DNA of 64,000 bases from Vicinamibacteria bacterium. Lineage in GTDB: Bacteria; Acidobacteriota; Vicinamibacteria; Marinacidobacterales; Marinacidobacteraceae. A program made the translations under genes and the position numbers. The stretch covers positions 864,001-928,000 of the forward strand of contig OY729431.1 of NCBI GenBank assembly GCA_963422395.1, read 5' to 3'. The first letter of the stretch is position 1. Every line of letters begins with the position of its first letter. Shown here one piece after another: positions 1 through 64,000 of this stretch. Below the pieces are notes generated by a model. The model saw only the letters and a list, made by a program, of their open reading frames with translations, ran no database searches and was not told the origin of the DNA.

Positions 1-2285
1 CGGCGGCACATGAGCGAGATCGAAGCCAGACTGAAGAGGAGGTTGGGAGACCAGGCGGCGAGTGCCGGATCGAGAAGCTCCGCATCGCCCAGGAAGCTGA
101 AGAAGTGGGTGGCGATCAGGTAGATGATTCCGATGGCGAGCGCGATCGCGGCGCCCGCCACCGCACCCCGGTTCGTGCTCCGGAAGGCGAAGGGAACGGC
201 GATCAGCACCGCGACCAGCGAAGCGATGGGCAGCGACGCCTTGGTGTGGAGGTCCACCAGGAGGTCCGGGGCGCGGTGCCCGGCTGTTTGGACGATGGCG
301 ATGCGGTCTCGCAGTTCGGGATAGGGGAGATGGTCGGGGGCGATCTCCTCCTGGAGGAACGCCCCGGGTGGTGGAACTCCGGGAAACGCGCGAACCGCGA
401 AGGGGCTTGGGGGGCTGCCCCCGGCGAACTCGCGCTGCCAGCCCCCGATCGCCGTCCACGACCGATCGGCCGGCGACCAGTGGGCGGAAGCGGCGTACCG
501 GCGGGCGGTGAGGGAAGATCCATCCGTCGCGGTCTCGAAGACCGAAAGCCCGCTGAGCACCTCGTTGTCCTGGTCGAACTCGCGGTAATGGAAGATCGTT
601 CCCCCGGGGCCGATCCTCCAGTGCTGCTCGAGGGGATCGAGGGAGCGGATGCGCAGCCCCCGGATCCGCGCTCCGAGGTCTTCGCTCTGGGGACCGGCGA
701 TCGGAAGGAGCATTTCCTGGATCGCGAGCCCGCCGGCCGCCGCCGCGAGACCTACGGCGAGGGTGGGGACTGCCAGACGACTGCGGCTCACTCCGCCGGC
801 GAGGAAGGCCGTCAGTTCGCTGTGACGGCTCAGGACGCCGAAGGTCACCAGCGTTGCCGCGAGAGTCGCGAGGGGAAGCATCTGGATCGTGAACTCGGGG
901 AGCGATAGCCCGAGGTAGCGGGCGAGCAGGGAGCCCGGGGCTTCGTGATCGAAGGCGTCTCCGATCATCGCGGTCAGGCGGCCGATCGTCTGCACTGCGA
1001 CGAGCGCGGCCAGCGAAATGATGAAGAACCGCGCGAACTGGGTGATCACATAGCGGTCGAGCAGCGTCGGCAGGCCGGGAAGGCGAAGCCGTCGCCGCCG
1101 GGCAGTGCGGGGCCGGTATCCCGGCGCCTGCGGCAGGAAGAGAGCGCCCGCCCGCCGAAACCACCGGGCGAGCGCCCCCAGCGGATCCAGTTCCCGCGCG
1201 GTCGAGAGCAGCAGGAGCACGCCGAGGGCGGCGGCGAGGAAGTTGGCGGCCCACACCGCCAGCCAGGCGGGCAGCTCGCCGTCCACCGCGAGCTGTTCCC
1301 CGAAGGTGAGGGGAATGTAGTAACCGAAGACCACCAGCACCGCGGCGGCGAAGGCGCCGGCGCGCGCCGATCCGGGGGAGGGGCGGAGTCCGAGGCCGAG
1401 GCCGAGCAGCCCGAAGGCGAGACAGGCGAAGGGCAGTGCGAATTTCTTGTGGATCTCCACCAGATAGACCGGGTGCGCGGTGGCCGCGAAAGCGGTTGCC
1501 AGGTCCGGCAGCGACATGGCGCGGGCGCTCTGCCGAGGGCTCACCGCTTCGGGCCCGAAGACGCTCAGGGCGTCGAGCGGCAGCCGGATTTCCGATGCCC
1601 GCTGGATGCGGTAGCGGCTGGGGTTTTCGAGTGCGGCGTTGTGCACTTCCACGGCGTCGAGCTCGATCAGGGCGATGCGGTCCTCGGGCACCGTCACCAG
1701 CCTCCCGCGCTCGGCGACGAAGATCGTGGGATCGGCGCTCCTCTCGGTGTCGGCGAGAAAAACCTGCCGCCAGCCGTTCTCGTTCGGTGGGGTTTCGCCC
1801 ACCAGCAGTACCCGGCCGTCGAGCAGTTCGTCGTAGAAGATTCGGGGTTCGATCTGGGTCCGGAGGCGCGAGCTGAGCAGTTCGTCCGAGAGTTCCACGA
1901 ATCGACGGTTCGAGCGCGGGACCACCTCTAGCATGAGTGTGCTCGACAGCACGAACCCCATCGCCGAGGCCGCCGCGATCGGCAGCAAAAGCCGGCCGGG
2001 AGAGAGGCCGCCGGCCCGCATCGCGATCAGTTCGTGGCCGCTCGTGAGCCGGTGCAGCGCGAGCAGGATTCCGAAGATCAGCGCGCTGGGGATCGCGACC
2101 ACGAGCAGTCCCGGCATCAGGTGGACGAGGGCGAGTCCCACAGTGGCCGGATCGGCGCCTTGGGTCACCAGGAGTTGTATGTTCCGCACCAGCTCGTTCA
2201 TGAGCAGGGCGAACAGGAAGACTCCGGTGCCGAGCAGGATGCCGGGAGCGATCAGGCGGAGGATGTAGCGGTCGAGAAGTCCCAC
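1..2285 (-). CDS. Fused LptF/LptG LPS export ABC permease (3' end runs off window)
   Basis: Minus-strand reading from GTG 2285 gives MGLLDRYILRLIAPGILLGTGVFLFALLMNELV. A second 'TLLDRYVITQF' LptG-type N-terminal motif occurs near 1065. Absent from the ORF track because no stop falls in the window. Confidence 0.85.
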   Translation of the reverse strand, partial: MGLLDRYILRLIAPGILLGTGVFLFALLMNELVRNIQLLVTQGADPATVGLALVHLMPGLLVVAIPSALIFGILLALHRLTSGHELIAMRAGGLSPGRLLLPIAAASAMGFVLSSTLMLEVVPRSNRRFVELSDELLSSRLRTQIEPRIFYDELLDGRVLLVGETPPNENGWRQVFLADTERSADPTIFVAERGRLVTVPEDRIALIELDAVEVHNAALENPSRYRIQRASEIRLPLDALSVFGPEAVSPRQSARAMSLPDLATAFAATAHPVYLVEIHKKFALPFACLAFGLLGLGLGLRPSPGSARAGAFAAAVLVVFGYYIPLTFGEQLAVDGELPAWLAVWAANFLAAALGVLLLLSTARELDPLGALARWFRRAGALFLPQAPGYRPRTARRRRLRLPGLPTLLDRYVITQFARFFIISLAALVAVQTIGRLTAMIGDAFDHEAPGSLLARYLGLSLPEFTIQMLPLATLAATLVTFGVLSRHSELTAFLAGGVSRSRLAVPTLAVGLAAAAGGLAIQEMLLPIAGPQSEDLGARIRGLRIRSLDPLEQHWRIGPGGTIFHYREFDQDNEVLSGLSVFETATDGSSLTARRYAASAHWSPADRSWTAIGGWQREFAGGSPPSPFAVRAFPGVPPPGAFLQEEIAPDHLPYPELRDRIAIVQTAGHRAPDLLVDLHTKASLPIASLVAVLIAVPFAFRSTNRGAVAGAAIALAIGIIYLIATHFFSFLGDAELLDPALAAWSPNLLFSLASISLMCR

Positions 2286-2315
2286 GAGACTCCGCGATTG
2301 TAGGAAGCTCTCGGT

Positions 2316-2491
2316 CCGAGCGGTCCGGGAGCGGGGCGTCAGGATTGCGTCGGGCGTTCTCGGGGGAGGAGCGGGACACCCCGCTCCCGAAGCGCCCGGC
2401 GCTGCGCGCCGGGAATCCGAACTGCTGCCGGAGGCAGCGAGTTCGGATTCCGGGTCACGAATTCGTGAAAGGGGGTGGACCCCATTTCACA
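2316..2491 (+). repeat. Dispersed palindromic repeat family 2, copy A
   Basis: Matches 10082-10197 (direct) and 30951-31130 (inverted). Contains the hairpin ggaatccgaactgctgcc/ggcagcgagttcggattcc and the palindrome tcacgaattcgtga. Confidence 0.8.
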
Positions 2492-2693
2492 CATTGCATG
2501 CGATGTCGCGTGGCGGTGGGGAGGCCCCGGTCACGCTTCTCTCCGCGACCATGGAGTCCGGCCTACCGTATATGGGGGCAGGCCTGGGTCAGAGGCACAA
2601 GATGTTGGGGTTTGGCGCGTTGATCTCTAGAATAGGACTTGCCTTGCGAGGGGACGCGCGACGGGGTATCGAGGCGCGGAAGGGAATTATCCA

Positions 2694-5600: not shown

Positions 5601-6419
5601 GCTGGTCTGCCTCCGGCCCTCCGCGGGAAGACCCGAGAAGAATTGACGGCGGAGCTCGACGCGGCCCGGGGGGAGATCGAGGCGCTCGGACCCGTTAACG
5701 AGGTTGCGGAAGCCCGGCTTCGCGAGCTCGAGGCGGAACGGAGCGGACCGGCTTCCCGGCTGCACGATGTGGAACGGGGCATTGCGGACGGGTTGAAGGC
5801 GATGGAGAGGCAGGACCGCGATGCACGCCGCATCTTCAGGGAGGGTTTCGCTGCGGTGAACGCCGGCTTCGACGATGCCTTTCGTCGGCTTTTCGGCGGC
5901 GGCCGCGCCGAGCTGCGGCTCGTGGCGCCGCGCCGCGCGGCAGATGCGGAAGAGGACCCCGCGTGGACGGAGAACGGAACCGATAGCCGAGACGAACGGC
6001 CGGGCGCCGGACGCTTCGGGATCGAGATCGCTGCGGAACCCCCCGGGAAAAAGCTGCAGAGCGTGCGGCTCCTTTCCGGAGGGGAAAAAGCTTTGACCGC
6101 GCTCGCCTTCCTCATCGCCATCTTCCGCTATCGACCGGCCCCTTTCTGTCTGCTGGACGAAGTGGACGCTCCCCTCGATGACGCCAATGTGCAGCGTTTC
6201 GTCGCTCTGCTCGGGGAGCTGAAGCAGGACACTCAGCTCGTCGTCATCACCCACAACCGGCTCACGATGGAGGCATGCGAACATCTCTATGGAGTGACGA
6301 TGGAGGAACCGGGAGTTTCCCGGTTGCTCTCGGTGCAACTCGATGACGAAGAGTCGGAAGAGTGGATCGCCGGGACATCGGCTACCGCACCCGGCGGTTC
6401 CGGTCTCCCGGCGCACTGA
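2694..6419 (+). CDS. smc: Chromosome segregation protein SMC
   Basis: GFKSF, Walker A GPNGCGKSN, long coiled coils around a hinge, signature LSGGEK, Walker B LLDEVDAPLD; 1241 aa. Confidence 0.95.
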   Translation: MRIERLEIAGFKSFPEQVTLDFHSGATAVVGPNGCGKSNIADAILWVLGELGAGTIRARGKDLIFSGSALRPPLGLAEVRLQIRGVAPPVSSSGGAGRNGAAAGEDAGGSTREVLVTRRVDASGQSAYEMEGRRSTRREIRRLFAGTGLGDGSYALIEQGRAHEVLTAKPDELRLLVEEAAGLGAYRLNRRESESNLRTAERSLMQVRERLQELNRHIRQARRDSRNASRIREIASRIRLLGIAAQAARRDELLRRIRDGTAPETGLSAERARRRTSLAAFERFLDDLRGHREQSEGKLRQATRRLGELRSAGARAEALLDEGERAASLRAEQLARLDAEEIDLRDRLRRRDADLADRARRAREFPDLLERLGAAVDELASRRRAASAAERDCYRNLEETRRERDRLEAAAGAFRSSSAEHEQQRERLAAAGLALAGAQRELEARQEHARMVRSQADARRREQAQSRSRIAGQLEDAAERRDRSGARLEAARKAEEALRQERDALEARLASLKALVLSREQLGEGASRILEAARRLDLSIGDPVGETVEVASGYERAAERVLGVHRIWLDRADDLPRLVEELGGEDSVPGEVLVREFVEASGPSESGTGTREQPPPGGEWLRDQVAACAPGLAAAIPNATVVPDLETALSSFAARPALYVTRGGASVARPGVVRFGRGGPGEGFLAARREVAGLERERREFERRLEELTAVRAAAEGTAAAAGRAYEELREALVRAEGVAERLRLEYERSDDNAREVERRLEELAAEASVHAEDSRRNEEAGSRALAALDRDAGCLEKTVRALAAEEKQLASAREQFAAAEKGWREADREWTRQKAVAEELRRQTGAWERHQQEENRRLERIARDRAALARESERWKERREAALAQRAASASGTAEWEAREQRLGEIVGELGARLEETAAAARRRRAELDGVEERLAAASREVSEARSLLADLESEFRRESGLRLAEESAGLPPALRGKTREELTAELDAARGEIEALGPVNEVAEARLRELEAERSGPASRLHDVERGIADGLKAMERQDRDARRIFREGFAAVNAGFDDAFRRLFGGGRAELRLVAPRRAADAEEDPAWTENGTDSRDERPGAGRFGIEIAAEPPGKKLQSVRLLSGGEKALTALAFLIAIFRYRPAPFCLLDEVDAPLDDANVQRFVALLGELKQDTQLVVITHNRLTMEACEHLYGVTMEEPGVSRLLSVQLDDEESEEWIAGTSATAPGGSGLPAH

Positions 6420-6424
6420 TCGCA

Positions 6425-7438
6425 ATGGCGGGCCGGCGGGCGCCCGATCCCCCGTTGCGGGCGATGGTGTTCGCTGCCGGACGCGGAGACCGGATGGGCC
6501 CGCTCACCGCCAGGCGCGCCAAGCCGGCCCTGCCGTTCTGCCGGACGCCGCTGCTGGAGCGCATTCTGGACTGGCTCGCCGACAGCGGCGTCGAGGAAGC
6601 GGTGGTGAACCTGCACCACTGCCCGGAGACGATCGAGGCAGTGCTCCGGAAGGCGGAAAACAGCGGAGCGGCGCCGCTGCGCCTCTATCGATCCCGGGAG
6701 GCCGAACTGCTCGGCACCTCGGGAGGCCTTTCGCGGGCAAGCGAGCAGTTCCCCGCGCTCGCCAGGACGACCGGTAGGCTTCTGGTGCTGAACGGAGATA
6801 CCCTGCCGACTCTCCGCCTCGAGAGAATGGTTCGGTTCCACCGTCTGAGCGGCGGCGAAGCCACTCTGCTCGCGGACCCTGCTCCCGGCCCGGAATTCGC
6901 CGGCGAGCGGCGGCTCGATGCCGACGAAGCCGGGGTGATCACCGGACTCAGCGGGGCGGGGGGTCCCGGATTCGGTTTCGCGGGAGTCTGGCTCCTCGAA
7001 CCGACTGCGCTTCGCCATCTGAGCGGGAGGAGCGGCGGCCTCTCGGGTGATCTGCTGCCCGGGCTGATCCGCAGTGGAACCGGACGGGCTTTTCCCAGCC
7101 GCGCTCCCTGGTTCGAAATCGGAACTCCGGCCCGCTATCTGGAAGCGTCGCTCCGCGCGCTCGATCGCAGGATGGCCGCGGGTCCACCCGAAGGCGGCAT
7201 CCGGGCTGCGCCCGGGGCACGGGTGACCCACCCCGAACTCGTCTCTCCTGGCTGCTCCCTCGATCCGGGAGCGCGGGTCGAACGGTCGGTGCTGCTCGAA
7301 GAGGTGTCCATCGGAGCGGGAGCCCTCGTCTGTGAATCGGTGGTTGCGTCAGGAGAGACGGTTCCGGCCGGGGCGGTCGTTCGCGACGCCCTCTTCGCCA
7401 GGGGAATCGCCCTGCCGCTCGCAGGTTCCCCGGCATGA
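6425..7438 (+). CDS. NDP-sugar pyrophosphorylase, MurU-like nucleotidyltransferase
   Basis: AMVFAAGRGDRMGPLT..KP motif, LNGD, C-terminal hexapeptide-like repeats; adjacent to an AmgK-like kinase. Confidence 0.8.
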   Translation: MAGRRAPDPPLRAMVFAAGRGDRMGPLTARRAKPALPFCRTPLLERILDWLADSGVEEAVVNLHHCPETIEAVLRKAENSGAAPLRLYRSREAELLGTSGGLSRASEQFPALARTTGRLLVLNGDTLPTLRLERMVRFHRLSGGEATLLADPAPGPEFAGERRLDADEAGVITGLSGAGGPGFGFAGVWLLEPTALRHLSGRSGGLSGDLLPGLIRSGTGRAFPSRAPWFEIGTPARYLEASLRALDRRMAAGPPEGGIRAAPGARVTHPELVSPGCSLDPGARVERSVLLEEVSIGAGALVCESVVASGETVPAGAVVRDALFARGIALPLAGSPA

Positions 7439-10072: not shown

Positions 10073-10081
10073 GCTTGAAGG

Positions 10082-15552: not shown

Positions 15553-15745
15553 TAGCAGCCTGTGGACGAAGTCACACGGCCAAAGGCCGGCGATGCCCAG
15601 TTCTCCCGGTGGGGGCCCCGGCTGAACGCTTCGCTCGGCGTTGCGATTCCGTCGGAATACACCCGGTATGCCTCCCGAATCGCGCCTCGTCAGCCGGGCG
15701 CCTCCCCGATCTCGGGGCTCGCGCCACTTCATCCACAGGCTGCTA
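15553..15745 (+). mobile_element. MITE family 1, copy 1 (abuts an inverted end fragment at 15526-15554)
   Basis: 14-bp terminal inverted repeats TAGCAGCCTGTGGA...TCCACAGGCTGCTA; internal sequence shared with four other copies. Confidence 0.85.
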
Positions 15746-15851
15746 GGGAACTCGTGGCGGCAGTCGGCGCCTGCCTGAGCCGAGGGGGCCGCGGAGCGAT
15801 CCCGGTGCGCTCTGCCTCCGGCAGGATGCGGCGCGCGCGCCCCAACAGGGG

Positions 15852-34239: not shown

Positions 34240-34243
34240 TCTC

Positions 34244-34457
34244 TAGCAGTCCGTGGATAGAGTGGCGCGAGCACCGAGACCGGGCCAGTTCTCCCGGTGG
34301 GGGCGGCGCCTGGCGGACAAGGCGCGAATCGGGAGGCATACCGGGCGTATTCCGACGGATTCGCAACGAAGAGCGAAGCGGTTCAGCCAGGGCCCCCACC
34401 GGGAGGACTGGGCATCGCTGGTCGGATGCCGTGTGACTTTGTCCGCGGGCTGCTCTA
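34244..34457 (-). mobile_element. MITE family 1, copy 2 (opposite orientation, about 20-bp internal insertion)
   Basis: TAGCAGTCCGTGGA...TCCGCGGGCTGCT ends; body matches 54391-54584. Confidence 0.85.
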
Positions 34458-36128: not shown

Positions 36129-36230
36129 GATCCTGCGGGGGGATCGGGGTTCCGGCCGGCCGCATCCCCCGACTGCGTCCGCCCGGTACACTCGGTGCGT
36201 TTCCTCGTCTCTCATCCCCGGAGGTCCTTC

Positions 36231-39200
36231 ATGAATATCCGACGCCTCGTGATCCTGCTGTCCGCCGGAGTCTTCGCCGGGGTGCTGTCTGCCCCGCGGG
36301 CGCTCGCCCAGGGCAGCCATCGCGACTACGACGAACACTTCGACGAAGCGAATGTCACCGTGCCGCCCGAGTACTACGAGGGCATGGAGTTCCGGGCGGC
36401 CGGTTTCACCCGCGGCGGGCGCTCCACCGCGGCGGCCGGGGTGACCGGCGATCCGCTGACCTATTACTTCGGCGGCACCGGCGGCGGGGTGTTCAAGACC
36501 AGCGACGCGGGCCACAACTGGACGAATGTCAGCGACGGTTTCTTCGGGGTGGGCGCGGTGGGCGCCATCGCCGTCGCTCCGTCCGATGCGAATGTGGTCT
36601 ATGTAGGCACCGGGTCCGTGTGTCCGCGCGGGAACATCTCGGTGGGTGACGGCATCTACCGCTCGACGGATGCCGGCAAGAGCTGGAAACACATCGGGCT
36701 CCGGCACGCCGGACAGATCGGTGCCATCGCCGTCCATCCCGACGATCCAGAAGTCGCGTTCGCCGCCGTGCTCGGCTATATCTTCGGACCCAACGAAGAG
36801 CGCGGGATCTTCCGCACCGAAGACGGCGGGGAGAGCTGGGAACGGGTGTTCTTCCTCTCCGACCGCACCGGTTTCGTGGACATCCAGATGGATCCGACGA
36901 ATCCCCGCATCCTCTACGCCGGCGCCTGGCGCGCCGAGCGGAAGCCCTGGACGATGATCTCGGGGAGCGAAGACGGCGGCATCTACCGCAGCCGGGACGG
37001 CGGCGACAGCTGGGAAAAGGTCGAAGGCGGCCTGCCGTCGGGGCTTTTGGGAAAGACCGCGGTCGCGATTTCGCCGGCCAACCCGGACCGCATCTGGGCA
37101 CTCATCGAAGCGGAAGGCGACGACGGCGGGCTCTACCGCTCGGACGACGGCGGCGAACGCTGGACCCGGATCAACGGCGACGCGAATCTGCGCCAGCGCC
37201 CCTGGTACTACATCCACATCTATGCCGACCCGAAGGACGAGAACACCGTGTACGGCTTGAATGTGGGTTTCCACAAGTCCATCGACGGCGGCAAGACCTT
37301 CTCCGAGCGCATCCGGGTACCCCACGGCGACAACCACGACCTCTGGATCAACCCGGATGATCCGAGCAACATGATCAATGCCAACGACGGCGGCGCGAAT
37401 GTCTCCTTCGACGGGGGACAGAGCTGGACCGACCTGATGGGGCAGGAGACCTCGGAGATCTACCGGGTGTTCGTGGACGATCAGTGGCCGTACCGCATCT
37501 ATGGTTCGCAGCAGGACAACTCCACGATCTCGATCCCCTCGCGCGGCGGTTTCGGGGTAGTGCCCGACTGGTATTCGGTGGGCGGCTGTGAAAGCGGCCA
37601 CATCGCGGTGGACCCGCGCGATCCGGACATCATCTACGCCGGCTGTTACGGCGGTTCCATCTCCCGAGTGAACCGCAAGACCGGCGAATATCGGCAGATC
37701 CTCCATTACCCGCAGCTGCAGCTCGGGCAGGCGGCGCGCGACCTGAAGTACCGCTTCCAGTGGAATGCGCCCATCCGGCTCTCCCCGCACGACCCCGACA
37801 TCCTCTACCACGCTTCGCAGGTCGTCCACCTGTCCCGCGACCAGGGGCAGAGCTGGTCGGTGGTGAGTCCGGACCTGACGACGAACGACCCGGAACACCA
37901 GGATTACGCCGGCGGTCCGATCACCCGCGACAGCACCGGCGTCGAGGTGTACAACACTGTTTTCGCCTTCGAGGAATCGCCGCACACCCCGGGGGAGCTA
38001 TGGGCCGGGAGCGACGACGGCCGCGTCCATATCTCCCGCGACCGGGGCGATACCTGGACCGAGATCACTCCGGCGGACATGCCCGAAGGCGGCACCGTCA
38101 ATGTGATCGAACTCTCGGTGCACGACCCGGCGCGCGCCTTCCTCGCGGTGTACCGGTACCGTGAGAACGACTTCCGCCCTTACATCTTCCGCACCGGGGA
38201 TGCCGGGGCGAGCTGGGACCTGCTGACCGACGGCACGAACGGGATCCCGCCCACGCATCCTACCCGCGCCATTCGCGAAGACCCGGATCGGATGGGGCTG
38301 CTCTACGCCGGCACCGAGTTCGGCCTCTACATCTCCTTCGACGACGGCGCCCATTGGCAAAGGTTCCAGAACGACCTGCCGGTCACCCCGATCACCGACC
38401 TCCGGGTGCACCGGAAGGACCTGGTGGTGTCCACCCAGGGCCGTTCCTTCTGGGTGCTCGACGACCTGAGCCCGCTCCACCAGCTCGACGAGGAAACCAC
38501 GACCGCAGAGTCCGTGCTCTACGCACCGCGCACCGCGCACCGCGGCGGTTTCGGCGGTGCGGCCCGGATCCAGTATCACTTGAAGAACGAGCCGGAATCG
38601 GCCATCACCCTCGAAATCCTCGATTCCGCAGGGAATACGGTGCGAAAGCTCACCGGACAGCCGGGCGCTGGTGCTCCGAGCGGGCCGGTCTCGCCGTTCG
38701 CGGCGTTCTTCGGCGGCGGGGGACCCGAAAGGCTGCCGGCGAAGGCAGGGCTCAACTCCTTCCGCTGGAACCTGCGCGGTGAGCGGATCGAGCGACCCGC
38801 CGGAGTCGTCCACTGGGGCGGGACGCCGGGTCTCCCGGTGCTTCCCGAGACATATGAAGTGCGTCTCACCGTGGGCGAGGAAACCCATACCGCGCCACTC
38901 GAAGTGGCGATCAACCCGAGCCTCTCCTCCACCGCCGCAGATCTCGCGAAACAGCGCGAGCTCGGCGAAACCGTCGCCGGTGAGATCACGAAACTCTTCG
39001 ACGCGCTCACCCGCCTCCGCGAGGTGAAGTCCCAGGCCGAAGACATCACCGCCCGCCTGCGGAAAGCAGACCGGGAAGACGAGGAACTCGGAGAACTCTC
39101 GAAAGCGCTCGGCGACCGCCTCACCGCGATCGAGGAAACGATCACCCAGACGAACAGCAAGTCCTCCCAGGACCCGATCAACTTCCCGCCGCAGATCGAC

Positions 39201-39422
39201 AACCAGCTCGTCACTCTCTACGGATATATCGTCCAGGCCGATTACGAACCCACCGCGGGCGCTTATGAACGCTTCGACGACCTGAAACCCGAGCTCGACG
39301 CCATCCACACCGATCTCGATGCGGCCATCACCGAGCACCTCGTCCCCTTCAACGCGCGGATCGCCGCCCTCGGCGTCCCGGCGGTCGTGGTGGCGGAGGA
39401 GGAGGAAACCCCGGGCAATTGA
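36231..39422 (+). CDS. Secreted VPS10/sortilin-like BNR (Asp-box) repeat protein, putative glycosyl hydrolase
   Basis: Signal peptide; many S.D.G.TW Asp-boxes; C-terminal helical tail. Confidence 0.85.
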   Translation: MNIRRLVILLSAGVFAGVLSAPRALAQGSHRDYDEHFDEANVTVPPEYYEGMEFRAAGFTRGGRSTAAAGVTGDPLTYYFGGTGGGVFKTSDAGHNWTNVSDGFFGVGAVGAIAVAPSDANVVYVGTGSVCPRGNISVGDGIYRSTDAGKSWKHIGLRHAGQIGAIAVHPDDPEVAFAAVLGYIFGPNEERGIFRTEDGGESWERVFFLSDRTGFVDIQMDPTNPRILYAGAWRAERKPWTMISGSEDGGIYRSRDGGDSWEKVEGGLPSGLLGKTAVAISPANPDRIWALIEAEGDDGGLYRSDDGGERWTRINGDANLRQRPWYYIHIYADPKDENTVYGLNVGFHKSIDGGKTFSERIRVPHGDNHDLWINPDDPSNMINANDGGANVSFDGGQSWTDLMGQETSEIYRVFVDDQWPYRIYGSQQDNSTISIPSRGGFGVVPDWYSVGGCESGHIAVDPRDPDIIYAGCYGGSISRVNRKTGEYRQILHYPQLQLGQAARDLKYRFQWNAPIRLSPHDPDILYHASQVVHLSRDQGQSWSVVSPDLTTNDPEHQDYAGGPITRDSTGVEVYNTVFAFEESPHTPGELWAGSDDGRVHISRDRGDTWTEITPADMPEGGTVNVIELSVHDPARAFLAVYRYRENDFRPYIFRTGDAGASWDLLTDGTNGIPPTHPTRAIREDPDRMGLLYAGTEFGLYISFDDGAHWQRFQNDLPVTPITDLRVHRKDLVVSTQGRSFWVLDDLSPLHQLDEETTTAESVLYAPRTAHRGGFGGAARIQYHLKNEPESAITLEILDSAGNTVRKLTGQPGAGAPSGPVSPFAAFFGGGGPERLPAKAGLNSFRWNLRGERIERPAGVVHWGGTPGLPVLPETYEVRLTVGEETHTAPLEVAINPSLSSTAADLAKQRELGETVAGEITKLFDALTRLREVKSQAEDITARLRKADREDEELGELSKALGDRLTAIEETITQTNSKSSQDPINFPPQIDNQLVTLYGYIVQADYEPTAGAYERFDDLKPELDAIHTDLDAAITEHLVPFNARIAALGVPAVVVAEEEETPGN

Positions 39423-40197: not shown

Positions 40198-41370
40198 ATG
40201 CGGATAGAGAGCATCGAACTCAAGAACTACCGGGCGTTCCGCCGTACGGCGTTTCGTGGGCTGCCAGACATGGCGGTGGTGGTGGGCGCCAACGGATCGG
40301 GCAAGTCCACGCTGTTCGATGTGTTCACCTTCCTGAAAGATGCGTTGAGCGGGAATGCCGCTACCGCAGTGGCCCGCCGGGGCGGGTTCCGCGAATTGGT
40401 CAGCCGAGGCGAATTGGGCACTGTCGAGATCCAGATCAAGTTTCGTGAGACGGGCGGCCGATTGGCCACCTACATTCTGGAGGTGGCCCAGGATGGCGGG
40501 CGCGTCGTCGTGGAGCGTGAAGTGCTTCGCTACCGCCGGGGTCAGAAGGGAAAGCCGTGGCATTTCGTGGACTTTTCGCGCGGCGAGGGCACAGCGATCA
40601 CGAATGAATCCGTCTATGGTCAGCAGGGCGCCGTCGAGAAACGGGAGCGATACGAGCTGGACGACCCGAGCATCCTCGCCATCAAGGGGCTGGGACAATT
40701 CCGTGAGTTCCGGGTGGTCTCGGAGTTTCGCAGCCTGATCGAGAACTGGTACATCTCTGATTTCCACATCGCCGACGCCCGCCCGAGCGCGGAAGCCGGC
40801 TTCGCCGAGCACCTTTCCTCTCGCGGAGACAATGTCGCCCAGGTCGCGCAGTACCTCTTCGAGAACCACCCTGATCGTTTCGCCCGGATTCTGGAAGCGA
40901 TGCGCCAACGCGTACCCGGTGTCGAGTCTGTGGAGGCGAAACCCACCGAGGACGGGCGTCTCGTCCTCCGCTTCCGGGACGGCCACTTCCGCGATCCCTT
41001 CATCGCCCGTCATGTCTCAGACGGCACGATCAAGATGTTCGCCTATCTGGTGCTGCTCCACGATCCGAAACCGCACCCGTGTCTCGCAGTGGAAGAACCG
41101 GAGAACCAGCTCTACCCCGACCTGCTGATCGAACTCGCGGAAGAGTTCCGCGACTACGCGCGGCGCGGAGGCCAGGTGTTCGTCTCCACCCATTCTCCGG
41201 TTTTCCTGAACGGGGCGAAACTGGAAGAGATCTTCTGGTTGGTCGAGGAGGGCGGATTCACGACGGTGCGGCGGGCGTCCGAGAACGAAACGCTGCGGAA
41301 TCTCATGCAGGAAGGCGACTCTCCCGGAGCGCTCTGGAAGCAGGGACTCTTCGAGGGGGCGGGTCTGTGA
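40198..41370 (+). CDS. ABC-type AAA ATPase (AAA_21 / RecF-SMC-like)
   Basis: GANGSGKS, signature-like VSDGT, Walker B VEEPEN.LYP, switch VSTHS. Confidence 0.9.
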   Translation: MRIESIELKNYRAFRRTAFRGLPDMAVVVGANGSGKSTLFDVFTFLKDALSGNAATAVARRGGFRELVSRGELGTVEIQIKFRETGGRLATYILEVAQDGGRVVVEREVLRYRRGQKGKPWHFVDFSRGEGTAITNESVYGQQGAVEKRERYELDDPSILAIKGLGQFREFRVVSEFRSLIENWYISDFHIADARPSAEAGFAEHLSSRGDNVAQVAQYLFENHPDRFARILEAMRQRVPGVESVEAKPTEDGRLVLRFRDGHFRDPFIARHVSDGTIKMFAYLVLLHDPKPHPCLAVEEPENQLYPDLLIELAEEFRDYARRGGQVFVSTHSPVFLNGAKLEEIFWLVEEGGFTTVRRASENETLRNLMQEGDSPGALWKQGLFEGAGL

Positions 41371-41931
41371 CCGGCCGAATCGGCTTTCTGCTGGAGGAGC
41401 GCTCGATGAAGGTTCTTCTCGAGGAACTGCTGCCGCGATCGTTCCCGGATGTTCGGTTCCTCTGTCTGGCGCACGAGGGCAAGCAGCATCTGGAGAAGAG
41501 CGTGCCGCGGAAACTCCGGGGGTGGCGCGAGCCGGGCGTTTCGGTTTCTGATAATGCGAGATAACGACGGCGCCGATTGCCGTGCCCTGAAGAACGGGCT
41601 TCTCGAGCTGCGTCCCCTAGGCGCCGGACGGGATGCTCTCGTGCGGATCGCATGTCAGGAACTCGAAGCCTGGTATCTCGGGGAGCCGGACGCTTTGGCG
41701 GAGGCGTTTTCCGACGAGAAACTGCGGTCGATCGGACGACAGGCCCGTTATCGTGATCCGGACACCGTTGTGAACCCTTCCCGAGCGGTCCGCCAACTGG
41801 TTCCTGAGTTCCAGAAAGTCTCCGGTGCTCGCCGGATGGGGAAGCGGCTCACGCGGGAGAGAAACCGTTCGGCGAGCTTTCGTGCATTGCTGCGGGGAAT
41901 CGAGAGGCTGCGGGAGGAGGCTCCGGCATGA
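41367..41931 (+). pseudogene. DUF4276-family (TOPRIM-like) protein with a +1 frameshift near 41540
   Basis: FLLEE.SM...HEGKQHLEKS.P.KLRGWREPG in one frame continues as RFLIMRDND.ADC...RIACQELEAWYLG in the next; extra T in ggcgtttcgg. Confidence 0.8.
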
Positions 41932-42039
41932 GGCATGGCGCCAACAGGCGCATGGTGTGCAGTGCGTCGTGGTCGGTGGATATTCCAGGTGGAGAAATGG
42001 TCAAGATCGTCTGCGTGCACCTCCCAGCCGACAACAACG

Positions 42040-43190
42040 GCGGTTCCGGCAGTTCCAGGCGAAGCTCGCCAGCCTGACGTTCTTCGACCCCGCATGCGGC
42101 TGCGGCAACTTCCTCATCATCGCCTACCGGGAATTGCGGCTGCTCGAAATCGAGATCATCCGTGAGATACGGGACGCCACCGCCGCGACCGGTCAGGCGG
42201 TACTCGATGCAGCGTGGCAGTCGGTGGTGGACGTGGATCAGTTCTACGGGATCGAGCTTGGCGAGTTCCCGGCCCGCATCGCGGAGACCGCGCTGTGGAT
42301 GATGGACCACAGGAAAGCGCGCCGATCAACGGTATGGGCAGATTGATTATCGGCTCCAAGCCCATCGACGGCAGAAGCTACATATTCGACTCGGCGGAAC
42401 GTGACGCGTTTCTGGATGCGGAGCCGGAGGCCGCGCCCTGGCTCCGACCGTTCATCGGGGCACGCGAGTATTTGCAGGGAGGCGAGCGCTGGATTCTGGC
42501 GCTGCACGATGCACCGCCCGAACTTCTTGCGTGGCTACCGGGAGTGCGGGAGCGAATCGCCGCCGTCCGCGCCTACCGCGAGGCGAGCAAGAGCGCGCCG
42601 ACGCGCAAGCTTGCGACGACGCCGACGCTCTACCATGTCAACGTTATCCCGACCACACCATTTCTGGTGATTCCGAAGGTCAGTTCGGAGCGGCGCGAAT
42701 ACGTGCCGGTGGATTGGCTGGAGCCGCCGACCGTCCCCAGCGATCTAGTGTTCGTCCTTCAGGACGCTTCGCTGGTCGATTTCGCGCTGCTGACCTCGAC
42801 GATGCACATGGCATGGCTGCGCCATATCGGCGGACGGTTGGAAAGCCGCTACCGCTATTCCATCGGCCTCGTCTACAACACCTTCCCGACACCGCCCGAA
42901 GGCGCGGATATGTCGAAGCTGGCACCGCTCGCCCAAGCAGTGCTCGACGCCCGCGCCGCTCATCCGGACGCGACTCTGGCCGATCTCTACGATCCCGATC
43001 TGATGCCGCCCACCCTGCGCCGCGCCCACCAAGCCCTCGACCGCGCCGTGGACCGCCTCTACCGCCGTACTGGCTTCGCGTCAGAGCGCGAGCGGGTAGA
43101 ACATCTGTTTGGGGTGTATGATAAGGTGCAGTCGCCGCTCGGGGCGGGAATCAAGGCACGTTCAAGACGCCGAACAAAAGCAAGTGAATG
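42040..43190 (+). pseudogene. MmeI-like Type IIL restriction-modification enzyme remnant
   Basis: FFDPACGCGNFLIIAYRELR and QFYGIE..EFPARIAETALWMMDH, then a jump at about 42312 to TRD/C-terminus motifs IPKVSSERREY, GGRLESRYRYS...YNTFP, TLADLYDP..MP. Nuclease and NPPF regions are absent. Confidence 0.88.
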
Positions 43191-43233
43191 ACCAGAAAAG
43201 GGCACACCCATGACCGGACAAGATGCTTTGCAG
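43033..43233 (+). repeat. Diverged direct repeat unit 1 (mmeI 3' end, leader and first 8 codons of the next gene)
   Basis: Aligns by eye to 43907-44114. Confidence 0.85.
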
Positions 43234-43845
43234 AAAAAATCGGAACTGCGCCTTGTATTGACCGAGAAATTCACCGAGACCGATGCCTTGGAGATTCGAG
43301 CAGCGCTCAATCGACACCTGCGGATCAGCAAGCCAGAGAGGTATTATCGAGCCTCGATAGACCCGCCATCGGTCATCAAGATACTAGGTGAGGCCGCGCT
43401 GTGGCTGCCTCTGACCGCAGCCACGGTCTTCTTCAAGTCCTTCGTCAGTACTCTCGGGAAGCGAATGGCCGATGCGGCATGGGACAGTTTGGCAGCACGG
43501 AAGGAGAGCAAGGACATCGAACCATTGGTTGATGTCGTAAACACGCTCGTTTCGGCTGCTGATCGTGTTGGAGGACGGGTTTATATCGAGGTTGGTCTCG
43601 ACATTCCAGATGACTTCTTCGGAACGGCGATCACGACCGAGTCCCGCGATCCCTTGGAGTTGGCGCGGATCCTATCGTCTTTCATCGTGCGTGCGGAGAA
43701 AATCTCCGACGCGGTACAGGCCGAGATCGAACGCGGGTACAAACCGCTCGGGCAGTTCGTCATGGAGCTGGAGCAAGACGGAAGCATGACGATCCGATGG
43801 ACTGCTGCGTCCGACTCCAAGACCTACGAGAAGCACATACCGTAG
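43210..43845 (+). CDS. Hypothetical protein (211 aa, lower GC)
   Basis: Intact ORF with a natural amino-acid composition, starting MTGQDALQ; no recognisable family. Confidence 0.7.
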   Translation: MTGQDALQKKSELRLVLTEKFTETDALEIRAALNRHLRISKPERYYRASIDPPSVIKILGEAALWLPLTAATVFFKSFVSTLGKRMADAAWDSLAARKESKDIEPLVDVVNTLVSAADRVGGRVYIEVGLDIPDDFFGTAITTESRDPLELARILSSFIVRAEKISDAVQAEIERGYKPLGQFVMELEQDGSMTIRWTAASDSKTYEKHIP

Positions 43846-43906
43846 ATAACTGTCAGTGGACGTTTTAGGATGGGATCACTCTGCGACCAACCCCAGCCCT
43901 CGCTAG

Positions 43907-44114
43907 GCCCTCGGCCGCGCCGTGGACCGCATCTGCCGGCATGGCGGCTTTGCGTCGGAGCGCGAACGGGTGGAACATCTGTTTGAGTTGTATGAGAAAA
44001 TGATGTCGCCGTTGACGATGGGAGTGGGAATGAAGGAAAAACGCCGGAGACGCCGGACAAAAAGCAAACGAATGGCAGAAGAACACACTCATGATGGGAC
44101 AAGATGCTTTGCAG
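43907..44114 (+). repeat. Diverged direct repeat unit 2 (second mmeI C-terminus fragment)
   Basis: Encodes AVDRICRHGGFASERERVEHLFELYEKM, versus AVDRLYRRTGFASERERVEHLFGVYDKV in unit 1. Confidence 0.85.
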
Positions 44115-44199
44115 GAAACGGTTGCCGCCCTTATCAATAGAAAAGCCGAAGGGACCTATTGGGATTTCAAACGTATCCATCACCGCAATAAAGGTGACA
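44091..44199 (+). pseudogene. Truncated Schlafen/AlbA_2-domain protein N-terminus
   Basis: LINRKAEGTYWDFKRIHHRNKGD resembles the AlbA_2 E....DFK motif; cut where the integrase remnant begins. Confidence 0.6.
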
Positions 44200-45085
44200 T
44201 GACCGCTTGGCTTGCGGCGGTGTGCCGAAGATCGTGCAGACGCAGGCTGCCGAGCTTCGCGTCGTTGCATACCTTTCGCCAGCACGTCGTAAGGCTATAG
44301 GTGCCTCGGCCTTCGGCATAGTACGGAAACAGGAACGCATCGGGATCGCGCGCACCGGGCAGCGCGGCGACATGCGCCCGCGCGGCCTCCCCGAGCGGCA
44401 CGGCGCGCGGTCCGGTCTTCGAATCCTCAAGATTCAGCGCGTCGGTACCGACGTTCCGCCAGCGAAGATTGAGCACTTCGCTGCGGCGGCACCCGGTGAG
44501 TGCGAGCAGCCGGATCGCCGCGACGGCCTCGGGCCATTCGGCCTCGCGGGTGTCGAGAGCGCGCCCGAGCCGCGCGAGTTCGTCCGCGTCCAGGAACCGG
44601 GCGAGCTTCTTTCTCGGGTTCTTCGCGATGCCGAGACAGGGCTGCTGCCGCGCTCGCGCAATCCCCATTCTTCGGCCCGGAACATCATCGCGCGCAGTAT
44701 CTCGAAGGCGCGGTTGGCCGCGCCGGGCTTGTCCTTGCTCGCCGCGTCGAACCACGCGGCCACGTCCTCCGGGCCGATGCGGTTGAGGGGCATTTTGCCG
44801 AAGGCGGGGAGGATGCGGGCCTTCAGATAGATGCGCACGGTCCTGCGCCCCGAGGGCTTCCAGTGCGGCTCGCAGCGGCCAGGTACTCGTCCGCGAACTC
44901 CCGGAAGGTCGGGGTCTTCTTCTCGCGCTGGATGTCGTCTGCGGGATTGTCGCCCGCGCGGATGCGCGCGAGCATGTCGCGGGCGCGGCGGCGGGCCTCG
45001 GCAAGCTCCATCTCGCCGTGCCGGGCGATGACGATGCGGCGGCTCCGCCCCTCGATACGGGTCTGCACGATCCAGACATTCCGTG
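44195..45085 (-). pseudogene. Tyrosine recombinase/integrase with arm-binding domain; two frameshifts, both ends truncated
   Basis: LAEARRRA (arm domain), LALTGCRRSEVL.LRW, DSKTG, LHDLRHTAAS. Frameshifts near 44880 and 44640; the catalytic Tyr region is missing. Confidence 0.88.
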
Positions 45086-45711
45086 GAGGGAGCTTTGGTT
45101 GATGCTGGCAAGGCTCCATCGGGCGTTTCGGTCAGCACCGCGTTGTCGGTTGTCGACGGACCTCGCGGCCTCATTCGCCAGCGGCGCAGTGCACCCCCGC
45201 GCGCTTTTCGAAAGGGATGCGTCAGGAGCCGCTCGGCGGCCACCTCACGGATGCGGGCGCGATCGTGCACGGCCACCCACCCGCGGGCGTCGTCTTCGAG
45301 CAAGACGCTGTATGGAAGAATCAGCGCCTCGGAAATAGTCCAACAATTACGCTGGGTTACGGTCTAGGCTCTCTCCTTTCGGCGAGTTCGAGAAATACGA
45401 GGAGAACGGAGTGTTCCGAAGCCTCGAGGAGCCGGCATGGAAGGACTGAGCGGATGTCTCAGAACCGGGTGGGTTTCGAAGGCGTCGGCGACCGTTCTGC
45501 CGACTGACAGGAAGTGCCGCTGCTCGAGTTTGCCGGAAGCGGTGCCGTTGTAGCTCGCCTTTCGTTTCCTCGAATCCGGGGCGGGCGGCGTCCACCGAGA
45601 TACGGCGGCATCCCGCCCGGGCCGGGTCGGAACGGCTCGAGAACGCTCGTTGCGGCCGTTTCCGCAGTCGACAGGGAGCATGGGGGCGGCCCACGGGACC
45701 GCTTTGAACGG

Positions 45712-54378: not shown

Positions 54379-54390
54379 GAGGACGGATTC

Positions 54391-54584
54391 TAGTAGTCCG
54401 TGGATTAAGTGGCGCGAGCACCGAGACCGGGGAGACGCCTGGCGGACAAGGCGCGAATCGGGAGGCATACCGGGTGTATTCCGACGGATTCGCAACGAAG
54501 AGCGAAGCGGTTCAGCCAGGGCCCCCACCGGGAGAACTGGGCATCTCCGGTCGAATGCCGTGTGACTTTGTCCACGGGCTGCTA
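54391..54584 (-). mobile_element. MITE family 1, copy 3
   Basis: TAGTAGTCCGTGGA...TCCACGGGCTGCTA, 194 bp, 12 bp upstream of the deacetylase ATG. Confidence 0.85.
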
Positions 54585-56587: not shown

Positions 56588-56615
56588 AGACGCCGGCCCG
56601 CCCCGATCTACCCGC

Positions 56616-56714
56616 TGCGATTCCGTCACTCCCGGTATGCCTCCCGAATCGCGCCTCGTCAGCCGGGCGCCTCCCCGACCTTGGGGCTCGCGCCACTTCA
56701 TCCACAGGCTGCTA
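56616..56714 (+). mobile_element. MITE family 1, copy 4 (right half only)
   Basis: cccggtatgcctcccgaatcgcgcctcgtcagccgggcgcctccccga...TCCACAGGCTGCTA is nearly identical to copy 1. Confidence 0.8.
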
Positions 56715-58756: not shown

Positions 58757-59041
58757 ATGACGGACCAGTCGAAGGAAAAAGACGGCGCCCCGGAAGTCGA
58801 GGAGTTGCCGGTGGACGAGCGCGTCCGCGAGCTGATCTGCGATCAGCTCTCGACGGCGCCCGACGAGGTGATTCCCGAAGCGAGCTTCGTGAACGATCTG
58901 AACGCGGACTCGCTGGACATGGTCGAGCTGCTGATGGCGCTCGAAGAGAATTTCGGCATCGACATCTCGGAACACGAGGCCGAGCGGATCCAGACCGTGG
59001 GCGATGCGGTGGCTTTCATCGAGCAGCGGCTCAAGGCCTAG
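58757..59041 (+). CDS. acpP: Acyl carrier protein
   Basis: DL.ADSLD.VEL.MALEE.F...I; the TAG stop coincides with the MITE terminus. Confidence 0.95.
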
Positions 59042-59232
59042 CCGCCCGTGGCCAAAGTCACACGGCAGTCGACCGGCGATGCCCAGTCCTCCCGGTGGGG
59101 GCCCTGGCTGAACCGCTTCGCTCTTCGTTGCGAATCCGTCGGAATACGCCCGGTATGCCTCCCGATTCGCGCCTTGTCAGCCAGGAGCCTCCCCGGTCTC
59201 GGTGCTCGCGCCACTTCATCCACGGACTGCTA
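59039..59232 (+). mobile_element. MITE family 1, copy 5
   Basis: TAGCCGCCCGTGGC...TCCACGGACTGCTA, 194 bp, between acpP and fabF. Confidence 0.85.
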
Positions 59233-60574: not shown

Positions 60575-60588
60575 TCCGGTACCTGGCC

Positions 60589-61617: not shown

Positions 61618-61620
61618 AGC

Positions 61621-62541: not shown

Positions 62542-62586
62542 GCAGACCCCGCCCCGTCGGTCCCCTGGCGGTGAGCCCCCAGGCAG

Positions 62587-62799: not shown

Positions 62800-62898
62800 G
62801 GACACCTCCGAGCCCGCTCCCAAACGGACTACCGAGGAGTCTAACGAGCCCCCGGCGATAGGACGGTTCGCCGTTGGGCGGCGGTGAGCCCCCGGCAG

Positions 62899-63090
62899 CT
62901 ATTCGAGCGGGGCGGCGGAGCCCTTTCGAAGAAGGGCTTCCATGATGCCTTCGAGTCGGGCCATGCGTTCACGGAGGCCGCCGATCTTCCGACGGAGACC
63001 GGCGATCTCCCGGCGCAGCGACAGGTGGGAAGCCGCGATGGCGAGCACGATCGAAATCGTCGGAACCAGGATCTGCACTGCGTCGGACAT
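62899..63090 (-). CDS. Small TM-anchored coiled-coil protein, copy 2 (63 aa)
   Basis: Paralogue of 62587-62799 with one fewer heptad. Confidence 0.7.
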   Translation of the reverse strand: MSDAVQILVPTISIVLAIAASHLSLRREIAGLRRKIGGLRERMARLEGIMEALLRKGSAAPLE

Positions 63091-63126
63091 GGACACCTCC
63101 GAACCCGCTCCCAAAACGAAGCTCCG

Positions 63127-64000
63127 TTACCAGCCGCCAGCTGAAGCCGATTCCTCCGGAACTTCGGCGCAATGCGCTGCATACACATCTCGATTCTGCC
63201 GTGACTCCTCGCCACAGTAGTCCGTGGATCGGCTCAGGAAACCGATATGGGTTGCTCCATACGCGTACAGAATCGCCAGGCGGCCATCCGGCGTCCAGGT
63301 CATGTCCCGTATCGGAGCGCCGATTTCGATTTGCTCGACATATTTCACTGCGGTGCCGGAGCGGCGAACCCGGAGTAAGGATCTCGCCTTCAGTGAGGCG
63401 ATCAGAAAGTCGTCTTTCCAGAGTGGGAACCGGCGTTCGTCGTTCACCACGATGCTGGTAGGGGCGATGGACGGCACCCAAGAGAAGACCGGCTCGTGGA
63501 ATCCGTCGTGCCCTCCCACGGTCTCGTTTTCCATCGGAAGCGGCGACTTGCGGCCGTAATCGACTCCATAGCTGACATGAGGCCAGCCGTAGTCGCGGCC
63601 GGTTTCCAGGAGATTCAGCTCGTCCCCGCCTCGCGGCCCATGCTCGACTGCCCACAGGGCTCCGTCATCGTCTCTTGCGAGTCCCTGCGGGTTCCGAAGG
63701 CCGGCCGCCAGGATTTCCACTTCCCCGGTTGCGATCGTGACCCGAACGAGCTTGCCCAGGTGCGAATCGGGATCGGCAGCGACCGGAGCCCGGTTCGCCC
63801 AGGGCAACCACCCATCCCTCGCGTGATCCCCGATCACGACCAGCAGGTGATCCGGTCCGTCACGCAGCATCCTGCCGGCGGACCGATCCCCTGAGAGCCA
63901 GGATTCGAAGCACGGATCCGCTTCGAAAATCGTTCTCCATGACCCCGAGCGAGTTGCAGTCCCCGGACGCTCCAGGATCGTCGAAGACAGCCTGAACCGA
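63127..64000 (-). CDS. PQQ-dependent sugar dehydrogenase (GSDH/YliI-like), 5' end outside window
   Basis: GK..R, GLRNPQGL, EHGPRGGDELN, DYGWP, W.PSIAP. Confidence 0.85.
   Translation of the reverse strand, partial: RFRLSSTILERPGTATRSGSWRTIFEADPCFESWLSGDRSAGRMLRDGPDHLLVVIGDHARDGWLPWANRAPVAADPDSHLGKLVRVTIATGEVEILAAGLRNPQGLARDDDGALWAVEHGPRGGDELNLLETGRDYGWPHVSYGVDYGRKSPLPMENETVGGHDGFHEPVFSWVPSIAPTSIVVNDERRFPLWKDDFLIASLKARSLLRVRRSGTAVKYVEQIEIGAPIRDMTWTPDGRLAILYAYGATHIGFLSRSTDYCGEESRQNRDVYAAHCAEVPEESASAGGW

Follow-up and report, generated by a model that had tools for sequence, protein, structure and literature searches.

Genome-wide purge of the palindrome ACGT in a GC-rich acidobacterial lineage: codon phase points to a hypermutable CpG as the probable main route of loss

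We analysed a stretch of 64,000 nucleotides (hereafter the window; G000:C1:864001-928000) from the genome of a Vicinamibacteria bacterium, hereafter G000, which is a single contig of 2,908,270 bp with 68% GC. Our subject is the four-letter palindrome ACGT, which is almost missing from the window except in one short, ACGT-rich islet. Upstream of the islet lie a BNR/sortilin-type gene and a pair of genes encoding an AAA_21-type ATPase and a DUF4276 protein. The islet carries the remnant of an MmeI-type (type IIG) restriction-methylase, a short open reading frame (ORF) and, at its right end, a tyrosine recombinase gene of the phage integrase family. A gene cassette that encodes the only C5-methylase of the genome, and that bears on the cause of the purge, is located outside the window (Table 1).

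Table 1. Coordinates of the features discussed, in window positions unless a contig or locus is named; a hyphen within a codon pair marks the codon boundary
Feature	Position	Strand	Remarks
ACGT sites outside the islet	3902, 8068, 12556, 18421, 20413, 24632, 29758, 52860		8 sites; rest of window almost ACGT-free
ACGT sites inside the islet	42077, 42231, 42399, 42641, 42701, 43158, 43860, 44171, 44284, 44451, 44762		11 sites
ACGT-rich islet	42077..44765		GC 0.62
MmeI-type (type IIG) restriction-methylase remnant	41825..43191	+	overlapping frames 41825-42346 and 42214-43191
211-aa ORF	43210..43845	+	GC 0.56; no Pfam or PADLOC match
Tyrosine recombinase (phage integrase family)	44180..45079	-	PF00589 7.7e-11; right end of islet
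AAA_21 ATPase, HEC-01	40198..41370	+	AAA_21 5.6e-34; PADLOC HEC-01B 1.1e-175; ACGT-free
DUF4276 partner, HEC-01	41449..41931	+	DUF4276 4.5e-10; HEC-01A 7.4e-37; ACGT-free
Codon-switch example, AAT-GTG (Asn) and TAT-GTA (Tyr)	36588-36605	+	BNR/sortilin-type gene, in frame of ORF 36195-39422
MITE-like repeat copies	34243-34455; ~15554-15749, 54389-54583, 56613-56680, 59040-59232		
C5-methylase/Vsr cassette	G000:C1:676356-681748	-	~182 kb before window start; locus L003 8095-13748

How rare is ACGT? Expected counts were taken from a second-order Markov model, and the observed/expected ratios (O/E) of all 256 tetramers were ranked. ACGT occurs 19 times in the window against 90.9 expected (O/E 0.21) and 561 times in the genome against 4130.1 expected (O/E 0.136), and in both it stands at the bottom of the ranking. 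The avoidance that the initial annotation had read by eye is thus borne out by values far below 1. All 15 of the sites that it named exist, including the 11 between 42077 and 44762 in the islet, but its count of only four outside the islet was too low, since the sites at 20413, 24632, 29758 and 52860 had been missed. The ends of the contig (1-~35970 and 2872301-2908270) seem to form a terminal overlap of ~36 kb from circular assembly, which would make the true genome ~2.87 Mb: the first 200 bp are found again at 2872301, and the methylase genes at 5876-6562 and 2878175-2878861 score identically. Without this overlap, the genome holds 558 ACGT sites against 4077 expected.

The depletion is specific to this word. 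CTAG is the second-lowest tetramer genome-wide (O/E 0.28), and all palindromes other than these two lie between 0.64 and 1.34, so that comparable palindromes do not share the depletion. CGCG, CCGG, GCGC and TCGA have O/E values of 0.79-1.13, showing that CpG is affected only within A_T, and the non-palindromic neighbour words of ACGT show no depletion in the genome. ACGT is also low outside our crude gene calls (108 sites against 843.5 expected). The pattern is that of site avoidance: a short palindrome under-represented genome-wide, in every codon phase and outside genes. The ACGT purge is therefore genome-wide and palindrome-specific.

The islet departs from this rule. Positions 42000-45100 hold 11 ACGT sites, against 7.3 expected from the Markov model or 10.6 from base composition. 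The MmeI-type remnant matches MmeI_Mtase (7e-30), MmeI_TRD (1e-63) and MmeI_C (9e-27) and spans positions 339-441 and 635-909 of the 912-position type IIG model; lacking its N-terminal third and lying in two frames, it does not qualify as a full enzyme. In contigs from the Logan resource, four of the four metagenome runs cover 42006-45340 at 10-25 times the depth of the flanking DNA, and the contigs break near 41962-42124 and 45143-45471. Since the islet is single-copy in G000, this depth means that related elements must be common in other members of the sampled communities. The islet is a foreign mobile element, imported and not adjusted to its host. It contains an internal direct repeat of ~215 bp with 75% identity (43033-43237 and 43907-44118); the first copy overlaps the MmeI remnant at its end and the 211-aa ORF at its start, and the second lies just before the integrase gene. 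No tRNA gene is present in the window to mark an integration site. At least one contig variant touches an ACGT site (42078 C>G in X1), from which we draw no conclusion.

The neighbouring gene pair, in which an AAA_21-type ATPase gene adjoins a DUF4276 gene, has the composition of the two-gene defence candidate HEC-01. It has a low GC content (0.63) and the depth of the host, and is covered by a metagenome contig with 0 differences. Over 40198-41931 there are 0 ACGT sites where 5.0-5.9 are expected, and the probability of such an absence is 0.003 from base composition and ~0.007 from the Markov model. The pair thus obeys the rule and the mmeI/integrase segment breaks it, as had been proposed from the letters. 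Likewise, the proposal that ACGT density marks imported DNA holds in outline, since integrase and depth identify the islet as mobile independently of the word. The further proposal that the motif dates acquisitions holds only roughly, because an import without ACGT may have arrived long ago, or its donor may have undergone the same purge; the ATPase-DUF4276 pair is one case or the other.

Elsewhere in the genome, 175 of the 558 ACGT sites fall into 20 clusters that total ~70 kb, one of which is the rRNA operon. From the other 19 clusters we examined 20 ORFs: seven are members of families linked to defence or to mobile elements (HsdR, HsdS, an HsdS-nucleotidyltransferase fusion, a DDE transposase, an SNF2/PLD helicase, HEPN-DUF499 and a ParA-like protein), nine to other families and four to none. 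Some clusters have an ordinary GC content (0.68-0.72), such as the 15-kb cluster at G000 2168222-2183589 (GC 0.69), and ACGT density therefore finds imports that GC would miss.

Is the purge shared by related genomes? We sampled 37 of 40 relatives from the family and order, with first looks of 2.5-20 kb each (G026, G027, G032 and G033 have no ACGT sample, and G033 entered the homologue searches only, with no claim resting on it), and took larger samples of G003 (240 kb), G008 (240 kb) and G006 (100 kb) beside the whole genome of G000. Sixteen non-depleted family members, pooled to 740 kb, served as the baseline. Among the sampled relatives, only G003, G006 and G008 share the purge. The ACGT O/E is 0.03 in G003 (14/476), 0.12 in G008, 0.16 in G006 (26/162) and 0.14 in G000, against 1.06 in the baseline, and the order-level samples range from 0.79 to 1.21. 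The sister genus formed by G003 and G008 has also purged a second palindrome, AGCT: its O/E is 0.04 in G003 (16/440) and 0.12 in G008, compared with 0.94 in G006, 0.85 in G000 and 0.84 in the baseline. In the RpoB tree, G003 and G008 are sister to the rest of the family (SH-aLRT, an approximate likelihood-ratio support, 91), while G000 and G006 fall in an unresolved polytomy with non-depleted genera; a single origin of the purge is compatible with this tree but is not demonstrated by it. CTAG is strongly low in nearly all sampled family members (O/E 0.08-0.28 in pooled samples) and mostly milder in lower-GC families of the same order (~0.26-1.0 in single samples of 5-20 kb).

The purge has reshaped codon usage. 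We used 1636 ORFs with a high GC content at third codon positions (GC3), selected by a crude GC3-minus-GC2 rule rather than by a proper gene finder and covering 77% of the genome. Among these, NAC-GTN occurs 231 times against 4303 expected (0.054) and NAT-GTN 3477 times against 1715 expected (2.03), confirming the switch to T-ending codons before valine that the initial annotation had described; its example near 36590 is in frame (Table 1). The C-ending share before GTN is only 0.10 for Asn and 0.05 each for Asp, His and Tyr, as compared to 0.68-0.95 for the same four residues before GCN, GAN and GGN.

The pressure extends to the protein sequence. The O/E of the dipeptides [N/D/H/Y]-Val is 0.635 in G000, 0.447 in G003, 0.488 in G008 and 0.481 in G006, compared with 0.882 in the pooled non-depleted relatives. 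When all dipeptides with at least 100 expected occurrences in the baseline are ranked from the lowest, His-Val is 1st, Asn-Val 4th, Tyr-Val 5th and Asp-Val 6th in G000, and His-Val is 3rd, Asn-Val 1st, Tyr-Val 7th and Asp-Val 2nd in G003 and G008 pooled. Among the corresponding dipeptides with Ile, an increase is seen for His-Ile and Asp-Ile but not for Asn-Ile or Tyr-Ile. Pressure on a DNA word thus affects the protein sequence by making [N/D/H/Y]-Val rarer. Our search of titles and abstracts found no paper on dipeptide effects of site avoidance and nothing relevant on extreme ACGT avoidance outside Helicobacter pylori.

How is the word lost? The codon phase of the surviving sites is informative. 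In phase P1 (NAC-GTN) the C-to-T transition is silent, and in phase P2 (ACG-TNN) the G-to-A transition is silent. In phase P3 (NNA-CGT), either CpG transition replaces Arg by Cys or His, and the silent escapes, of which there are several, are of other kinds. With expectations calculated per gene and genes touching ACGT clusters excluded, G000 retains 146 of 3938 expected sites in P1 (0.037), 45 of 1025 in P2 (0.044) and 78 of 385 in P3 (0.203); at the P1 rate, only 14 sites would be expected in P3 (385 x 0.037). The P3 sites are spread over 75 genes, whose mean GC3 (0.814) is close to that of all genes (0.821). Across the GC3 tertiles, the ratio is 0.145, 0.18 and 0.40 in P3 and 0.051, 0.036 and 0.029 in P1. 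P3 is thus the least depleted phase in every tertile, and 14-fold less depleted in the highest one. The baseline values are 0.83, 0.60 and 1.11 for P1, P2 and P3.

The depleted relatives repeat this order. For ACGT, the P1, P2 and P3 ratios are 0.008, 0.029 and 0.055 in G003, 0.057, 0.031 and 0.283 in G008, and 0.094, 0.204 and 0.328 in G006. For AGCT, they are 0.008, 0 and 0.052 in G003 and 0.031, 0.092 and 0.195 in G008. Although the P3 counts in the relatives are small (one to four sites each), P3 is the highest phase in six of the six combinations of genome and word. Depletion is greatest in the phases that offer a silent CpG transition and least in the phase in which either transition alters the protein.

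The words that the transitions would produce were compared as well. The O/E of ACAT/ATGT is 1.52-1.82 in the four ACGT-depleted genomes (1.59 in G000) against 1.32/1.37 in non-depleted ones, and that of AGTT/AACT is 1.52-1.59 in G003 and G008 only, against 1.16-1.37 in the others. The products show a double dissociation, each being raised where its own word is purged. The G000 excess taken alone was discarded as a signature of deamination, since the relatives also reach ~1.35 and only the difference counts. Together, the phase pattern and the transition products point to a hypermutable CpG, that is, 5-methylcytosine (m5C), as the main route of loss. The 5-fold depletion that remains in P3 indicates a second force acting in all phases. 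Among the threonine codons of G003, ACT is used far in excess before codons starting with T, occurring 74 times there and 74 times before all others (odds ratio 7.4, compared with 1.9 in relatives), a replacement that deamination would not yield.

The rRNA genes retain the word. The single rRNA operon of G000 contains four ACGT sites in the 16S gene, conserved in six of the six genomes compared, and three in the 23S gene, where depleted genomes have two or three and the others four to seven. At three variable rRNA positions, the depleted genomes have ATGT and at least two of three non-depleted genomes have ACGT. Since ACGT is kept in rRNA, it is not lethal to the host. This retention is compatible with sites protected by methylation, or with restriction that has since ceased.

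We next consider the candidate for the responsible enzyme. G000 encodes exactly one C5-methylase (PF00145, 128 bits; 676652-677800, minus strand), in the translation of which we recognise what we take to be motifs I, IV, VI, VIII and X. It is followed by an intact Vsr gene (PF03852, 50.5 bits; TIGR00632, 103.8 bits with a cut-off of 97.85) and preceded, on the same strand, by three genes, giving a mobile five-gene cassette in the order 653 aa, 331 aa, 251 aa, C5-methylase, Vsr. The modelled structure of the 653-aa protein is predicted to have a GHKL ATPase fold, with Topo VI-B/Hsp90 matches reaching an E-value of 3e-7 (82 at E<=0.001). The 331-aa protein combines an Ig-like sandwich with a helical domain; Foldseek returned 0 matches at E<=0.001, and a wide structure search gave only generic beta-sandwich matches (best Z 6.3, none with Z>=8). 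For the 251-aa protein there is only a weak DUF6339 match, and for the 653-aa and 331-aa proteins a protein atlas returned only clusters of "hypothetical protein". The best PADLOC match of the methylase is the Druantia type II methylase, and no other Druantia gene is present. The cassette has the appearance of a methylase-linked defence system that is so far uncharacterised.

Synteny with G003 extends over the entire cassette, the methylase being 79% identical there, and the cassette DNA contains 0 ACGT sites in both genomes. Among the 40 relatives, methylase homologues with at least 45% identity occur only in G003 and in G008 (47%), which are both depleted. The three non-C5 methylases of G000 that were compared in this way (three of the eight PF01555 matches) are closest to orthologues in non-depleted genera. 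Scanning 185,579 species genomes yielded 52 loci with a methylase of 45-79% identity, in carriers whose record names indicate Acidobacteriota, Acidimicrobiia and other Actinomycetota, Chloroflexota and Gemmatimonadota, and the first four cassette genes are kept as a unit in most of them. Most of the divergence of the G000 methylase from those of the non-depleted carriers falls within residues 211-270, which directly follow motif VIII. In this variable recognition part, G000 and G003 share 66-73% identity, compared with 10-56% for the other homologues, so that the G000/G003 subfamily may possibly differ in specificity from the methylases of the non-depleted carriers.

Several other enzymes were noted beside this candidate. 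G000 holds many other methylases and defence genes, among which no ACGT endonuclease gene was recognised, as judged without a restriction-enzyme library of the REBASE type. An N4/N6-type methylase (G000:C1:1690195-1690917) has homologues with 56-90% identity in 13 of the 15 family members searched, and none at that identity was found in other families. This methylase probably belongs to the core genome as an orphan and has no connection with the ACGT purge. G003 encodes six C5-methylases and G008 three, and in our search for an AGCT enzyme no pair between them reached 38% identity except the cassette type.

Taken together, we propose that long-term C5-methylation of ACGT by a methylase of the restriction-modification type removed the word through the decay of m5C combined with some selection, an interpretation to which we assign a probability of a little under 60%. 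The process would act on the DNA palindrome itself, with a methylase of the type found in the MaeII and Hpy99XI systems. As 5-methylcytosine is deaminated to thymine, ACGT would decay to ATGT or ACAT much faster than it is re-formed. In the silent contexts NAC-GTN and ACG-TNN, the word would thereby nearly disappear, while in NNA-CGT, where Arg would become Cys or His, purifying selection would retain more copies. A second, weaker force would act in all phases, and most likely be selection against sites that a cognate endonuclease can cut. Because the preference for GC-rich codons would keep returning NAT to NAC, part of the flux would leak into amino-acid changes and make [N/D/H/Y]-Val rarer. 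Recent arrivals would not yet have decayed and would stand out as ACGT-rich patches. The suggestion in the initial annotation of a long-standing system of restriction, modification or methyl-C deamination directed at ACGT is thus supported in outline by the genome-wide, palindrome-specific purge and the phase pattern.

Several observations weigh against this interpretation. The gene calls are crude. ACAT/ATGT is already raised to ~1.35 in the non-depleted relatives, and its signal is only partly specific. P3 is still depleted 5-fold, which mutation alone does not explain, and G003 replaces ACG-T mainly by ACT-T, which is no transition product. The RpoB tree does not demonstrate that the depleted genomes are a single clade. 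The candidate methylase raises further difficulties. Of its 52 carrier loci, 51 are undepleted, with an ACGT O/E of 0.72-1.23 in the ~20 kb around them, G003 being the exception; in 30 non-depleted carriers, ACGT amounts to 463 of 500 expected sites in the cassette DNA and 1156 of 1150 in the flanks. No C5-methylase was found in the depleted G006, whose assembly is 86% complete in 410 contigs. The G008 copy of the cassette is surrounded by ACGT-rich DNA (18 sites within 20 kb, and nine in the 4-kb locus), which indicates that it is recent there. Finally, with a Vsr gene beside the methylase, the T:G mismatches arising from deamination would be expected to be repaired.

The 51 non-depleted carriers and the cassette-versus-flank counts rule out the sole C5-methylase as a sufficient cause. 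A survey of restriction-site avoidance from 2015 regards a system without avoidance as recently acquired (PMC4687349). This rule would fit the 51 carriers, and the published rules for recent and lost systems fit either reading of the methylase candidate. A narrower version, in which the G000/G003 cassette subfamily alone is ACGT-specific through its distinct recognition segment and causes the purge, is in our view doubtful. If it were true, an uncharacterised methylase-linked defence system would have changed the pairing of codons and lowered the frequency of four dipeptides by 25-55% throughout the proteome, by making one CpG word both hypermutable and dangerous, and its relatives of other specificity would be spread over at least four other bacterial phyla.

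Could selection alone have removed the word, through an orthodox type II endonuclease for ACGT, now unrecognised or lost, and with no mutational component? According to the same survey, genomes widely avoid the sites of long-resident orthodox type II systems, and where no such system is encoded, avoidance is taken as a relic of one that has been lost (PMC4687349). The 5-fold depletion of P3 and the many methylases and defence genes of the genome accord with this explanation. The alternative threonine codons before T in G000 also match the baseline proportions, but both models predict near-baseline values there, and the comparison has no power. The phases speak against it. At mutation-selection equilibrium, by our reasoning from standard theory, one selection coefficient per site predicts an equal factor in all phases, and P3, with the largest choice of silent escapes, should show no weaker depletion than the other phases. 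Instead, its depletion is weaker by a factor of 5 overall and of 14 in the highest GC3 tertile, and AGCT behaves likewise in G003 and G008. As no ACGT endonuclease gene was recognised either, within the limit given above, we consider selection alone unlikely, although it deserves to be taken seriously.

The same phase order bears on a bias of mismatch repair, in which Vsr nicks T:G mismatches in ACGT-like contexts, converts T to C and turns ACGT into ACGC or GCGT. For E. coli, such a bias has been put forward to account for the rarity of CTAG. This word is also low across the whole family, and an intact Vsr gene adjoins the only C5-methylase. However, this route is silent in P3 and changes the amino acid in P1, so that P3 should be the most depleted phase, and it is the least. 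Moreover, the products are not enriched (NNA-CGC 0.69, NNG-CGT 0.93), the actual replacement being NAT-GTN. Predicting the reverse of the observed order, the repair bias was rejected, with hardly any probability left to it. Only slightly better placed, and still very improbable, is a cause outside restriction-modification, such as an RNA-level cost from an ACGU-cutting endoribonuclease, a DNA-structural penalty on the A-CG-T step or the avoidance of a CpG motif that a host can sense. In its favour, no cognate enzyme was identified, CpG motifs known to be immunostimulatory have ACGT as their core, and several record names of cassette carriers point to sponge-associated lineages. Against this stand the palindromic nature of the word, the purge in the sister genus of a second palindrome, AGCT, that contains no CpG, and the undepleted state of close relatives in the family and of 51 other cassette carriers; in addition, the depletion extends outside the gene calls and rRNA retains its sites.

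The window also carries copies of a dispersed repeat of ~190 bp that resembles a miniature inverted-repeat transposable element (MITE), with 15-bp terminal inverted repeats. The genome contains 61 copies of at least 140 bp, and more than 80 BLAST matches with 71-97% identity are distributed genome-wide, with a highly conserved core. Each copy holds two CTAG words, otherwise rare in the genome, and in metagenome contigs the repeat is covered ~15-20 times as deeply as its flanks. With no ACGT position in the consensus and 0 ACGT sites in the copies, it offers no internal record of mutation.

How does this purge compare with known systems? In vertebrates, methylated CpG decays to TpG/CpA and strongly constrained sites persist; here, only CpG within A_T is affected. 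The closest precedent is H. pylori, in which M.Hpy99XI is an m5C methylase for ACGT, the word is among the most under-represented and unstable motifs, its loss leads mainly to ATGT/ACAT and is attributed mainly to deamination, the sites are placed so that a change is mostly silent, and motif density is uncorrelated with methylase frequency across populations (PMC10423294). The depleted word is the same. The H. pylori case concerns populations of one species, and ours a 68% GC acidobacterial lineage at the depth of a family, in which the [N/D/H/Y]-Val dipeptides are affected, a sister genus has purged AGCT, a Vsr gene is present and there is a candidate methylase only. The MaeII system of Methanococcus aeolicus, with the cleavage site A^CGT and the m5C methylase M.MaeII (PMC10113651), is a restriction-modification system directed at ACGT, but no endonuclease was recognised in G000. 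M.Hpy99XI and M.MaeII are the two ACGT methylases that have been characterised, and each is an m5C enzyme. As in the 2015 survey (PMC4687349), a short palindrome is avoided genome-wide and in common by related genomes, whatever systems they now encode. Here, however, the O/E of about 0.01-0.14 goes far beyond threshold-level avoidance, and the phase asymmetry suggests that mutation had a share in the loss; the survey makes no mention of such a share, with 0 occurrences of "deamination".

The phenomenon is therefore already known in kind, and the word ACGT has a published precedent. What is unusual is its depth in a 68% GC genome, the contrast within one family, the second purged word and the dipeptide imprint. 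The family constitutes a natural experiment, with members that have no purge, one purged word or two purged words. Within it, the codon-phase contrast separates the mutational share, due to m5C decay, from the selective share, a distinction that is usually beyond surveys of site avoidance. For practical work, the density of ACGT offers a sensitive means of finding imported DNA in this lineage, and the purge affects tetranucleotide binning and the choice of restriction enzymes for such genomes. The finding also shows that the pressure on a four-letter DNA word can reach the protein sequence.

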